From assembly GCA_965279515.1 (NCBI GenBank), contig CBDIID010000003.1, forward strand, positions 384,001 to 448,000: a stretch of 64,000 nucleotides of DNA. The letters are read 5' to 3'. A program made the position numbers and the translations under genes. This DNA comes from Turneriella sp. (lineage in GTDB: Bacteria > Spirochaetota > Leptospiria > Turneriellales > Turneriellaceae). The notes beneath the pieces were generated by a model. That model searched no databases. It was given only the letters and a program-made list of their open reading frames with translations, and was not told the DNA's origin. Positions 7,044-26,155 of the stretch are shown piece by piece (positions within the stretch are counted from its first letter, which is position 1; each line of letters begins with the position of its first letter).

Positions 7044-10048
<3,005 letters not shown>

Positions 10049-17778: not shown

Positions 17779-18811
17779 AGCGACGATAGACCTGATCAAA
17801 CAGCCCTCCGTCGGCAAAATGTTCTTTGTTCGCTTTATCCCAGCCGCCGAAGGTCGCATCGACCGTGACGAGCCGTACCGGCTTCACGTGCGCATAGTGT
17901 TTGGCGATATCGGTCTTGCGGGGACGGAAAAAATTCTTGCCGGCCAGATTTTGCCCTGCGTCGGAATACAGGTATTGCAGGTAGGCGGCGGCGATTTCCT
18001 GATTGCCTTTTTTAATAGCGTTGCCTTCCATGAGGGCGACGCTCGGTTCGGCGAGAATGCTGAGCGATGGAATAACAATTTCAAACTGCCCGCCCAACTC
18101 CTTTACCGCGAGGTAGGCTTCGTTTTCCCAGGCAATCAGCACATCGCCGAGTTTGCGCTGCGTGAAGGTTGTCGTCGCACCGCGGGCACCGGCATCCAGC
18201 ACGGCCACGTTCTTATATAAAGCACGCAGAAATTCTTTTCCACGCGCAGCCGCGCTGCCGCCATCTTCCGGGTGCCCCGGAACTCCGCGCGGCCCAGTGC
18301 CTCGTGCACCGTGGGCATACGCCGCGAGATGGTTCCAACGCGCACCGCCCGAGGTTTTCGGGTTGGGTGTAATCACTGAAACGCCGGCTTTTATGAGGTC
18401 ATCCCAATCCTTAATATTTTTAGGATTTCCCTTACGAACCAAAAATACGATCGTTGAGGTATAGGGCGCACTGTTATCGGGCAGCCTCTTCTGCCAGTCG
18501 CTGGGTGCAATCTTCGCTTCGCGCGCAATGGCGTCGATATCTGAAGAGAGCGCCAGCGTGACAACGTCGGCAGCCAGACCGTCGATCACGGAACGCGCCT
18601 GTTTGCCGCTGCCGCCATGCGACATATGGAAACGTACTTCGTCTTGCGGGTGAGTTGTTTTCCAGTGTTTGAGGAATGCTTCATTATACTCGCGGTAGAA
18701 TTCGCGCGTGGGATCATAAGAGACGTTCATGAGCTCGCGCGTCGCCTTTTTACCGCCGCAGGCAGTCAGGGCAGCGATGAACAGAATAAACTTTAACGGA
18801 CTTTTTTTCAT
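17777..18811 (-). CDS. sbp: Sulfate-binding protein, lipoprotein paralog (Sbp2)
   Basis: LTAC lipobox; [33 protein letters not shown]. Confidence 0.93.
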   Translation of the reverse strand: MKKSPLKFILFIAALTACGGKKATRELMNVSYDPTREFYREYNEAFLKHWKTTHPQDEVRFHMSHGGSGKQARSVIDGLAADVVTLALSSDIDAIAREAKIAPSDWQKRLPDNSAPYTSTIVFLVRKGNPKNIKDWDDLIKAGVSVITPNPKTSGGARWNHLAAYAHGARGTGPRGVPGHPEDGGSAAARGKEFLRALYKNVAVLDAGARGATTTFTQRKLGDVLIAWENEAYLAVKELGGQFEIVIPSLSILAEPSVALMEGNAIKKGNQEIAAAYLQYLYSDAGQNLAGKNFFRPRKTDIAKHYAHVKPVRLVTVDATFGGWDKANKEHFADGGLFDQVYRR

Positions 18812-18856
18812 TATAACGACCGACGAATTCGAGAATTCAGACACTCCGTCAATGAC

Positions 18857-21774: not shown

Positions 21775-21939
21775 TCACCTTCTTATGTGCAGAAGGGGAT
21801 AGCCGCGGGCACCCTGGCAACAGGATGTTGCGGGGGCTGCGGCGCACCAGCGGCGTTTGGAACAAACGCCTGTGGTGCAAGCCGCGGCCTCGCGCGCGCG
21901 ACAACAGCAACAACAGGAGTTTTTCACGAAATTTTTCAT
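21775..21939 (-). CDS. Poly-cysteine leader peptide (54 aa), candidate Cys-sensing attenuator
   Basis: MKNFVKNSCCCCCRAREAAACTTGVCSKRRWCAAAPATSCCQGARGYPLLHIRR*: 10 Cys, five consecutive; lies between cysK and the sulfate-uptake genes. Confidence 0.65.
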   Translation of the reverse strand: MKNFVKNSCCCCCRAREAAACTTGVCSKRRWCAAAPATSCCQGARGYPLLHIRR

Positions 21940-21973: not shown

Positions 21974-22882
21974 TTAAAAGAGACCTTCGATCGAGAGATA
22001 ACGTTCACCCGTATCGTAGTTGAACGTGAGAATGCGCGCGCCTTTTTTGAGTTCGGGAAGTTTTTTCGCCACCGCGGCGAGCGACGCACCGCTGGAGATA
22101 CCACCGAAAAGCGCCTCTTCGCGCGCAGCGCGTTTGGCATATTCAAACGCTTCTTCTTTCGTGACCTGGATCACGCCGGTGAGAAGTTCTTTTTTCAGGT
22201 TCTTCGGGATAAAACCCGCGCCGATACCCTGGATTGGGTGCGGAGCCGGATTGCCGCCGGAAATTACCGGAGACGCTGCAGGTTCAACCGCATAGACTTC
22301 GAGATTAGGCCATTTTTCGCGTAGCGTTTGCGCGAGTGCCGTGATATGCCCGCCGGTACCGACGCCGGTGATGACGACATCTATACCTTCGGGGAAATCG
22401 CGGAGTACTTCTTGCGCGGTAAATTTAGTGTGCGCGGCGATATTGGCTTCGTTCTCGAACTGCTGTGGGATCCACGAGTTTGGGGTTTGCGCCGAAAGTT
22501 CGTTCGCGCGTTCGATCGCACCCTTCATGCCTTTTTCACGCGGCGTAAGATCGAATGTTGCCCCATATGCAGCCATAACTGCGCGGCGCTCGACCGACAT
22601 GCTCTCGGGCATAACAAGAATGAGTTTATATTTTTTCGCAGCGGCGACGAGGGCAAGGCCAATACCGGTGTTACCCGATGTCGGTTCGATGATGACACTG
22701 CCCGGCTTCAGTATACCGCGGCGTTCTGCGTCTTCGACCATCGATAACGCGATACGGTCTTTAATACTGCCGCCCGGATTCTGGCGTTCCAGTTTTACCC
22801 AAACTTCGGCGTCGCCGAACAGGTGCTTGATACGTAAATGCGGCGTATTGCCGATTGCTTCGAGAATGCTATGTATCTTCAT
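21974..22882 (-). CDS. cysK: Cysteine synthase A (start re-called at MKIHSI, 22882)
   Basis: [14 protein letters not shown] (PLP Lys), [31 protein letters not shown]. Confidence 0.96.
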
Positions 22883-22962
22883 AAATAACTCCTTAATTTG
22901 AATTAACCGGGTGTTTTTTCGAAGCCCCGGTGCTTCCGGGGCAATCCGGGAGTGCTCCCGAA

Positions 22963-23076
22963 TTATCCCTGAAGCGCCGAACAGCCAAGGAAACACGATG
23001 TGTCCGGGCCTGCGCAGCACGCAGAGATGCGACAGCAGCGTGACATTGAACTAAAATCTGCTATACCGAACGTCAT
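22963..23076 (-). CDS. Cys-rich leader peptide upstream of cysK (37 aa; 27 aa from ATG 23046)
   Basis: [37 protein letters not shown]: 6 Cys including two CC pairs; followed by two hairpins before the cysK RBS. Confidence 0.6.
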
Positions 23077-23085
23077 TCTGCGCGG

Positions 23086-23115
23086 AAGATACTCAGGCGA
23101 CCGACACTACGTCAA
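23086..23115 (-). promoter_or_regulatory. Candidate sigma70 promoter for leader-cysK
   Basis: TTGACG (23115-23110) - 18 nt - TATCTT (23091-23086), 9 nt before leader ATG. Confidence 0.5.
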
Positions 23116-23134
23116 CAAAAACAGACAAACATCC

Positions 23135-23752
23135 ATGAAAACGAACAAGAAAAAAAAGCCCGAACCTCCCGCTCCGGCGACCAGCGGAGAAAACCTCACA
23201 GGGGTAGTCGCAGAAAACGTTAAACGACTGCGCAGTGACATGGATTTATCGCTCGATAAACTCGCAGGACTCTCCGGTGTTTCAAAAGCAATGCTGAGCC
23301 AGATCGAACAGGCTCGCAGCGCCCCCTCGATCAATGTGCTCTGGAAGATTGCCCGTGCGCTCGATGTGCCTTTTGCGGCACTAATCTCAAAGCGCACGGA
23401 TTCCCAGCTGCAGGTTGTGCGCAAAAGTGAAATGAAAGTGCTTTCATCACAGAAGGGAAATTTCCAGTCGAAGGCCCTGTTTCCGCTCGACATAGCCCGG
23501 CGCGTTGAATTCTACGAACTGCTGCTCAAGGCTGGCTGCGTCGAGCGCGCTGTGCCCCACCCCGCCGGTACGGCAGAGAATATCGTTGTGTCTGAGGGCG
23601 AGCTGGAGATTGAAATCGGCGGACAGAGAACTTTATTAAAAGAGGGCGACTCCATTTACTTCGTGGCCGACGTGCCGCATATTTACCGCAGCATCGGATC
23701 CAAAGACACACGCGCCTATCTCGTGATGACATACGCAGAAAAGCGCGTGTAA
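23135..23752 (+). CDS. XRE-family HTH + cupin transcriptional regulator (SutR/PuuR-like)
   Basis: 'LSLDKLAGLSGVSKAMLSQIE...PSINVLWKIA' and cupin 'H...E...V..G...GDSIYF.ADVPH.Y'; start re-called at 23135. Confidence 0.9.
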   Translation: MKTNKKKKPEPPAPATSGENLTGVVAENVKRLRSDMDLSLDKLAGLSGVSKAMLSQIEQARSAPSINVLWKIARALDVPFAALISKRTDSQLQVVRKSEMKVLSSQKGNFQSKALFPLDIARRVEFYELLLKAGCVERAVPHPAGTAENIVVSEGELEIEIGGQRTLLKEGDSIYFVADVPHIYRSIGSKDTRAYLVMTYAEKRV

Positions 23753-25183: not shown

Positions 25184-25594
25184 TCAGCTGGCGCGCTTCT
25201 CTTCTAACCACGCATAGACGTAAGTTCCCAGGAAGATACCCAGCACAATAAACGCGCCTGAGTGGAGTCCATAACCCAGAATTGCGAGCGCGGGGCCGGG
25301 GCATGCGCCTGTTAAGGCCCAGCCTGCTCCCGAAATCAGTCCACCAACCACGTGATTTTTGGACAGTTTCTCCACATTCCACTCGGTTTCGCCGCCCAAA
25401 AGCGGCTGGCGCCTGAGTTTTTTCCAGAGCTGTACGCCGATAAACGAAACCGGCACGGCAACGCCCAGAACTCCGTACATATGCCATGACTTGAGAAGAA
25501 ACATGTCGCGGATCACATCATAACTCGACACGCCTGCGCGGATGAGTATGTAGCCGAACGCAGTACCCAGCACCAGGAAAACAATGCGCAACAT
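25184..25594 (-). CDS. YeeE/YedE-family sulfur-transport protein (small, C-half type)
   Basis: 'GGLISGAGWALTGACPGP'. Confidence 0.85.
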   Translation of the reverse strand: MLRIVFLVLGTAFGYILIRAGVSSYDVIRDMFLLKSWHMYGVLGVAVPVSFIGVQLWKKLRRQPLLGGETEWNVEKLSKNHVVGGLISGAGWALTGACPGPALAILGYGLHSGAFIVLGIFLGTYVYAWLEEKRAS

Positions 25595-26092
25595 CTATTT
25601 TACTCCCGAGATGAATGAAATGAGAATGGTGACAATCACACCCGCCACGAGAAAACCTCCCGTCGCTACAAAACTTGCCAGCGAGCCCTTCGAAAGACCT
25701 GCAATGGAATTACCTGATGTACAACCCTTTGCAAGCCTTGCGCCATAACCCCAGAGAAATCCCCCTGTGATCAGCACAGCTGCCTTCACACCAAGACTTG
25801 TCCCCCAAATATCATTGAACCGGCCAAGGTCCCATGTCGGATGCCATCCCGTTGTGGTTAAAGCGGCGATAGCGCCACCAGCCACTAACCCGACTGTAAA
25901 GAATGTACGAAAACCGAAGGCGCCGCCGAGATCGGGCCTGGAAAAATATTTGAGGCGCGAAAAAATTCCGCAGACCGTGGCATAACCGCGGGTCACCGAG
26001 AGAAATTTTCCTGTGGATATAACTAATAAAATCGAAACTGTGGCAATGGCAAGTCCACCCAACCAAAACGGCCAAATATATGCAGAGGTCAT
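25595..26092 (-). CDS. YeeE/YedE-family sulfur-transport protein (small, N-half type)
   Basis: 'GGFLWGYGARLAKGCTSGNSIAG'; start re-called at MTSAYIW. Confidence 0.85.
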   Translation of the reverse strand: MTSAYIWPFWLGGLAIATVSILLVISTGKFLSVTRGYATVCGIFSRLKYFSRPDLGGAFGFRTFFTVGLVAGGAIAALTTTGWHPTWDLGRFNDIWGTSLGVKAAVLITGGFLWGYGARLAKGCTSGNSIAGLSKGSLASFVATGGFLVAGVIVTILISFISGVK

Positions 26093-26155
26093 GGGGGCAA
26101 CCTCCCGGAGGTTGCTCACGAGCGTAAAGTCAAACAGCTGTCGCACGCCCGGGGG

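Follow-up and report, generated by a model that had tools for sequence, protein, structure and literature searches.

Does the short cysteine-rich reading frame in front of cysK in a Turneriella species act as a cysteine-sensing leader, and by which output would it control the genes behind it? The window studied here is the whole stretch of 64,000 nucleotides that was analyzed, and its genome (G000) was compared with those of 13 congeners (G001–G013). The gene at 21974..22882 (minus strand), previously called cysK, scores 386 bits against TIGR01139 (cut-off 351) and is cysteine synthase A. Beyond it lie a second Cys-rich leader of 54 aa with 10 Cys (21775..21939, minus), which belongs to a separate sequence family, an outer-membrane protein of the alginate-export family, hereafter the porin (PF13372; 20057..21649, minus), two sulfate-binding proteins assigned by protein families, and ABC transporter ORFs. 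The divergent gene (23135..23752, plus) encodes an XRE-family transcription factor with HTH_3 and Cupin_2 domains over the Pfam cut-offs, and an O-acetylhomoserine/serine sulfhydrylase comes after it. The sulfhydrylase is followed by two small membrane-protein ORFs (25184-26146, plus), which we take to resemble YeeE/YedE sulfur transporters.

The leader ORF (22963..23076, minus) encodes 37 aa with Cys at codons 14, 15, 20, 21, 28, and 32, that is, six Cys with two CC pairs, exactly as the original prediction described it. It is a short ORF before cysK that is enriched (6 Cys/37) in the codon for the end product of the operon. The promoter motif TTGACG-N18-TATCTT announced for it was also found (23086..23115, minus), ending 9 nt before the leader ATG. 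Since this ATG lies 39 nt after TTGAC, a start site at about 23082-23079 and a 5′ UTR of 3–6 nt are predicted; the leader has no Shine–Dalgarno (SD) sequence. A scan for motifs of this type returned 3 sites versus 0.9 ± 1.1 in shuffled sequences, which alone is weak evidence. The distance of 39 nt falls in the shoulder of a genome-wide peak. By gene calls from our own script, TTG[AC]C stands 33–35 nt before the ATG of 243 of the 2003 G000 genes, 228 of them without an SD, compared with about 6 per position elsewhere, and 99 genes form the shoulder at 36–39 nt. Promoters of G000 appear to be dominated by the −35 region, with a TTG[AC]C box preceded by AT-rich sequence and a −10 that is hardly conserved; in actinobacteria and Deinococcus, it is usually the −10 that dominates leaderless promoters. 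A second cysK paralog (G000:C3:4171930-4172838), present in many congeners (L005, L028, L029, L038-L043), has neither an SD nor a leader and is probably leaderless itself, judging by a TTGCC/TTGTC box about 34 nt before its start. For Leptospira interrogans, one study reports that leaderless transcripts are common (PMC5243855); the literature search found no paper combining Turneriella and leaderless transcription.

By a loose criterion, the sense strand has Cys-rich ORFs in 17 of 2226 intergenic gaps, and the reverse complement likewise in 17 (about 0.8% per gap). Because these counts are equal, a Cys-rich ORF alone is background and unremarkable, and the case for a leader is one of position and conservation. 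Two of the 17 sense-strand matches fall within this single sulfur cluster, and the leader ORF holds the most Cys among the 286 short intergenic ORFs that start 33–39 nt after TTG[AC]C; at random-codon frequency, at least six Cys in 36 codons have a probability of about 1e-3. When G000 was searched under strict hairpin rules for attenuators of the his, trp, leu, and related kinds, this leader ORF was the only one returned. The exact peptide has no match in a collection of 15 billion proteins, no Pfam or NCBIfam family matches it, and no Rfam family (riboswitch, T-box, or leader) reached its gathering score in the window.

Conservation of the Cys codons, named in the original prediction as a check, holds in part of the genus: a leader follows the same promoter in five of the 13 congeners (G001, G002, G006, G009, and G011) and is missing at this promoter in the other eight (G003, G004, G005, G007, G008, G010, G012, and G013). 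The G006 leader has 27 aa with a CCCCxC run, ends as that of G000 does, and differs from it by a 30-nt in-frame indel, while the G001 leader (24 aa) has a different 3′ end and no hairpin 2. The leaders of G002, G009, and G011 encode 30 aa, start with GTG 34 nt after TTGAC, at the leaderless-type peak of the genome, and precede the porin gene instead of cysK. Among these three, codons 2–15 share 13–29 of 42 nt and the remaining part 43–47 of 48; start, length, and Cys codons are kept despite identity down to 13/42 in the first part. Consecutive Cys codons recur throughout, as two CC pairs in G000, CCCC in G006, and CCC in G002 and G009. A two-gene tree places G000/G006 and G002/G009/G011 on opposite sides of its deepest split, with a weak backbone support of 34–53 on several nodes; this placement fits either an ancient origin with several losses or transfer.

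Outside the genus, two of the five genomes with a cysK match (G016 and G017) have unrelated leaders, each with a Cys run at its end. These leaders (L033 and L034) end in CCCCCC and CSCCC, respectively, with pyrimidine-rich RNA after them that lacks the hairpins described below, and are closer to the actinobacterial type; the downstream ORFs at both loci are presumably sulfate-activation genes. In the neighboring family f8, for which 35 loci from the 103 genomes with a match were covered, one of the 35 cysK upstream regions has a loose Cys ORF, placed unlike a leader. Metagenome and genome scans with cysK yielded no additional congeners and led mostly to other phyla. At 6 of the 152 loci from these scans with enough upstream DNA, a short ORF containing CCC precedes cysK on the sense strand, versus 2 on the reverse complement, which is suggestive only. 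Such CCC-run ORFs stand before cysK in distant bacteria (L050, L089, L166, L171, L180, and L187), and the four titled loci among them are Bacteroidota: Sunxiuqinia, two Prolixibacteraceae, and one Bacteroidia.

The porin is itself a common neighbor of such elements, as 9 of 10 porin loci are preceded by a Cys leader of either family. Members of the second family, which lie between cysK and the porin gene in six genomes (the window, L221, L222, L224, L227, and L228), have 27–66 aa, 3–10 Cys, and conserved hairpins of their own without a U-tract. At about 21725-21670 of the window, extra stable hairpins are inserted between switch and SD. Folding of the porin-leader family gave contradictory results for the ribosome-binding site (RBS) from one genome to another.

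Behind the leader of G000, the two hairpins, the AAGGAG SD of cysK (22889..22894, minus, read from 22894 to 22889), and the lack of a U-tract after the hairpins are all present as earlier described. Hairpin 1 (about 22945..22963, minus) sits at the stop codon, and hairpin 2 (22924..22942, minus), with seven G–C pairs and no U-tract, is likely a pause or termination hairpin. The last leader codons (22967..22978, minus) supply an anti strand that pairs with 22941-22929, the 5′ arm and loop of hairpin 2; in the resulting anti helix, hairpin 1 forms the inner part. Neither this helix nor the operator-like sites treated below figured in the original prediction. The anti helix and hairpin 2 are mutually exclusive, and the minimum free energy fold of the G000 leader (z = −3.0) lacks hairpin 2 and contains the anti helix instead, stacked on hairpin 1. 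Hairpin 2 has one site in G000 and is not a genomic repeat, and a search of 34 genomes found the whole motif in 5, with a single copy in each.

An alignment of the five leaders, which represent two lineages only (G000/G006 and G002/G009/G011), keeps the register of the 12-bp anti helix with 88% of its cells paired. Between the lineages, two pairs of this helix have changed on both sides and one on one side, and 3 of 12 are broken in one lineage; with two lineages, its covariation amounts to a single comparison. Hairpin 1 has changes on both sides in 5 of 8 pairs. Taken together, the anti helix and hairpin 1 have 89% of cells paired, and in 7 of their 20 pairs both partners have changed; their covariation score was reached by none of 500 shuffles and slid controls were 25–59% paired, the tested structure having been drawn from the same five sequences. 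From one lineage to the other, the loop of hairpin 2 has changed, and so has the anti strand. The stem of hairpin 2 is invariant in all five leaders, while all that lies behind it varies, the downstream gene and the distance to its ATG (41–94 nt) included.

Folding was modeled with the ribosome mimicked by masking the 5′ RNA, on full-length RNA and, with a 12-nt footprint, on nascent transcripts ending at hairpin 2. In full-length G000 RNA, the predicted probability of hairpin 2 rises from <0.001 with a stalled ribosome to 0.93 with a ribosome at the stop codon; the corresponding shifts are from 0.05–0.07 to 0.99 in G006 and from 0.01–0.02 to 0.98 in G011, and hairpin 2 stays at 0.998 in both states of G002 and G009. 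In nascent RNA, the anti helix reaches 0.65–0.98 for most upstream Cys stalls in all five genomes, and a ribosome at the stop gives hairpin 2 at 0.99–1.00 in all five. The exceptions are the Cys32 stall of G000, which favors hairpin 2, the Cys13-14 stalls of G006, which leave hairpin 2 at 0.94–0.99, and Cys18 of G002/G009 at a 15-nt footprint. Untranslated G000 RNA is predicted to be mostly in the anti state (hairpin 2 at 0.17), and it has no strong 1:2 protector. In this model, the switching of G002 and G009 only at nascent length fits a co-transcriptional decision.

Based on these features, we infer translation, stalling, and termination at hairpin 2 as the functional steps. The 37-codon ORF would be translated from a near-leaderless transcript. 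A ribosome that reaches the stop would cover the anti strand and let hairpin 2 form, and transcription would likely halt there. A ribosome stalled on the Cys codons would leave the anti strand free to capture the 5′ arm of hairpin 2, and with hairpin 2 blocked, RNA polymerase would read on into cysK and the sulfate-uptake genes. The central claim of the original prediction, a near-leaderless leader that senses cysteine, is thus strengthened by conservation, by genome-wide promoter spacing, and by a covarying predicted RNA switch, all of them drawn from sequence. Cysteine sensing by any output is highly probable in our judgment, and that a near-leaderless translated Cys ORF acts specifically as a cysteine-sensing transcription attenuator is a reading toward which we incline slightly.

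Cysteine could also be sensed with a translational output, in which a freed 3′ arm of hairpin 2 or a covered Cys tract would open the SD. This is how the mycobacterial precedent was found to work when tested (10.1101/834739), and an SD-sequestering hairpin does exist in G002, G009, and G011. Forcing the anti helix makes RBS opening 3–4 kcal/mol cheaper in G002 and G009, and in the porin leaders of G005 and G007 a stall lowers the cost of opening (to 9.3 from 18.9 and to 4.0 from 16.0). Against this, the forced states of G000, G006, and G011 lie no more than 1.3 kcal/mol apart and in no consistent direction, the porin leaders of G000 and G001 shift the opposite way, and G006 (L207) has an extra stable hairpin between hairpin 2 and the cysK SD, flanked by duplicated AAGGAG. 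In particular, without forcing, the RBS opening energies are nearly equal for stall and stop in all five genomes (4.5/4.6, 7.2/5.2, 9.2/10.0, 13.7/14.2, and 4.6/5.9 kcal/mol), the G000 values being 6.1, 4.5, and 4.6 kcal/mol for naked, stalled, and stop states. A mechanism of the mycobacterial type, in which the Cys tract pairs with the SD, is not supported by this unswitched opening. As RBS access does not switch, the output is likely transcriptional, and a translational output appears unlikely. The invariant hairpin 2, the varying ATG distance and downstream gene, and the nascent-only switch in two genomes likewise favor a transcriptional decision; for transcriptional output specifically, we judge the chances to be a little better than even.

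How transcription might stop at hairpin 2 bears on another part of the earlier claim, a mechanism other than intrinsic termination. The U-tract after hairpin 2 is indeed absent in all five genomes, but by itself this absence does not suggest a special mechanism, as only 24 of the 146 strong post-gene hairpins of G000 have one and 122 do not. Many of the U-less post-gene hairpins belong to a repeated family of C-rich/G-rich palindromes that look REP-like rather than like terminators. Among other G000 hairpins of similar stem, 3 of 5 are terminators with a U-tract. A rho gene is present in G000 (TIGR00767 over cut-off). Relative to coding windows, the C-skew of the leader stands at the 52nd percentile in G000 and the 65th in G006, and at the 74th–98th in the other 12 leaders; all 14 leaders are pyrimidine-rich above the median (61st–98th percentile). 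In the G000 leader, C is not enriched relative to G, and it therefore offers no clear Rho loading site. Since hairpin 2 has no U-tract, termination there would need help from Rho or Nus factors or would be a U-less stop, and the sequence may be equally compatible with assisted and with U-less termination. Alternatively, cysteine may be sensed while hairpin 2 sets mRNA stability or processing through a cleavage site that is protected or exposed. The same observations, an invariant hairpin 2 without a U-tract and an unswitched RBS, would agree with such a role; yet the states of G002 and G009 differ only in nascent-length RNA, a difference invisible to a post-transcriptional process, and we hold the proposal to be improbable.

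The transcriptional attenuator we favor would be accompanied by a second, DNA-level layer, in which the XRE-cupin regulator acts on palindromes at the −35 box and in codons 2–7. One operator-like 16-mer (23111..23126, minus) has 4 mismatches to a degenerate palindromic consensus, and its right half is the −35 TTGAC; the same site is found in congeners. Another palindromic 16-mer, with 2 mismatches, lies inside leader codons 2–7 (23056..23071, minus). Sites with ≤3 mismatches occur in 13 of 16 XRE-divergent regions, genomes without a leader included, a count that is partly circular because these very regions supplied the consensus, which was set by eye; among 16 coding controls there is 1 match at 4 mismatches. 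In G000, the site in codons 2–7 ranks 5th of 152 position weight matrix matches and is the best intergenic one, and the genome-wide scan, with most of its 152 matches within genes, defines no regulon. Two further sites are not above this noisy background: one where the second sulfate-binding protein begins (18806-18821) and one at the start of another gene (8604-8619), whose N-terminus, we assume, resembles ThiC. The XRE-cupin regulator is found in 13 of 13 congeners, and 12 of them have cysK or sulfate-uptake genes on its divergent side; from this gene arrangement, it likely binds the palindromes. Its best NCBIfam matches, PuuR among them, are far below cut-off. Escherichia coli SutR (YdcN), an XRE-family regulator of sulfur utilization (PMC4797297), is like the divergent gene in its family and in its link to sulfur genes, with no orthology implied.

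Because the operator-like site covers codons 2–7, the identical N-termini of the G000 and G006 leaders reflect conservation of DNA, not of peptide. One could thus argue that the ORF is untranslated, with an operator and RNA hairpins as the functional elements and the Cys codons incidental. The operator would explain the conserved N-terminus and the RNA helix the conserved C-terminus, the loose Cys-rich ORFs are at background rate (17 vs. 17), a 5′ UTR of 3–6 nt may lower initiation, and 8 of 13 congeners run this promoter without a leader. This view leaves aside the in-frame Cys pairs or runs in six genomes here, before cysK in two other genera, and before the porin in six genomes, as well as the frame-keeping indel between G000 and G006 and the starts at leaderless-type distance, and we give it little credence. 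Despite its 6 Cys in 37 aa, the peptide is very unlikely to be a product with a function of its own, such as a small thiol- or metal-binding protein, as it varies in length (24–37 aa), in Cys number (2–6), and in the spacing of the Cys, its other residues differ from one lineage to the other, and neither Pfam nor NCBIfam has a match.

A further feature concerns where part of the switch may have come from. Hairpin 2 and 19 adjoining nt form a 38-nt stretch (22906..22943, minus) that is nearly identical to part of a family-9 glycosyltransferase coding sequence (PF01075), in the same sense and in frame. Identity is 32/38 to the gene of G000 itself (G000:C3:1678926-1678964; BLAST E 4e-4) and 34/38 to that of G007 (E 6e-7), and the borders of the match are sharp (7–13/39 in the upstream flank). 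None of 400 random intergenic 38-mers scored as high against G000 coding DNA (26 vs. a maximum of 23), in a match that was noticed after the fact. The G006 leader carries the same tract (33/38 to the G007 gene); the G002 and G011 leaders share only 20/38 and 15/38 with the genus-majority glycosyltransferase stretch. From these identities, the 38-nt stretch and the glycosyltransferase segment probably have a common origin, and the simplest account would be that the common start of the stem primed the copying of a short piece, after which the anti strand was repaired. A role of the leader in trans on the glycosyltransferase mRNA was considered and rejected, as the gene stretch varies at silent sites (25–34/38 across 13 genus loci and G014) and the best match sits in a genome without this leader. 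The composite history remains tentative: a near-leaderless, U-less spirochete attenuator whose first codons are a repressor site, and whose switch hairpin in G000/G006 had its loop and tail overwritten by 38 nt copied from a housekeeping glycosyltransferase gene, after which the antiterminator strand co-evolved and pairing was restored. If true, it would let one trace how a piece of coding sequence came to serve in an RNA switch.

The kind of control proposed is itself already known; the element is real and conserved, and its functional steps are those suggested by sequence and modeling. If they operate as predicted, the leader would extend cysteine-codon attenuation to spirochetes and add a third type of output beside SD sequestration in mycobacteria and U-tract termination in Rhodobacterales. 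It is disputed if, and by what means, transcription can terminate at a hairpin that lacks a U-tract, and this small element, with a switch defined base by base, would allow a direct test of U-less hairpin termination. Control at one and the same promoter would also fall to a putative operator by itself in some species and to operator and leader jointly in others, and the operon would hold two different Cys leaders in tandem. In the literature searched, mostly outside subscription journals and supplements aside, no paper on a spirochete cysteine leader was found.

In trpL and hisL, the position of the ribosome chooses between an antiterminator helix and a terminator hairpin. The Turneriella leader shares with them an antiterminator-like helix opposed to a terminator-like hairpin and set by ribosome position (10.1101/834739, Fig. 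1 legend); it differs in having no U-tract, a leader without an SD, and no strong 1:2 protector in G000. The polycysteine leaderless sORFs of mycobacteria (Ms5788A, and Rv2334A before cysK1) have been tested, and their Cys tract is reported to pair with the SD, with a translational output (10.1101/834739). The likeness to them lies in a Cys-rich ORF, predicted here to be near-leaderless, of about 30 codons placed 80–100 nt before a cysteine or sulfur gene, in the lack of an intrinsic terminator, and in the presence of several per genome. In contrast to that description, no RBS switch is predicted here and the anti helix competes with a GC hairpin; the Cys are dispersed or central instead of forming a C-terminal run, and an operator-like site lies inside the ORF (10.1101/834739). 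The uORFC-8-2 motif before cysS in Rhodobacterales, for which transcription attenuation with a 3′ U-run is predicted (PMC8632094), resembles the present leader by description in its tandem Cys codons at about 14–15 and its two stems, and is unlike it in the U-run and in preceding cysS rather than cysK or sulfate-uptake genes. Actinobacterial cys/cbs leader peptides, predicted without terminators and proposed to use Rho (PMC1262725), likewise place a Cys-codon leader without a U-tract terminator before cys operons; they are reported to lack conserved hairpins, whereas here alternative helices covary. The Turneriella leader therefore stands outside both the classical U-tract class and the mycobacterial SD-duplex class, lacking one defining feature of each.
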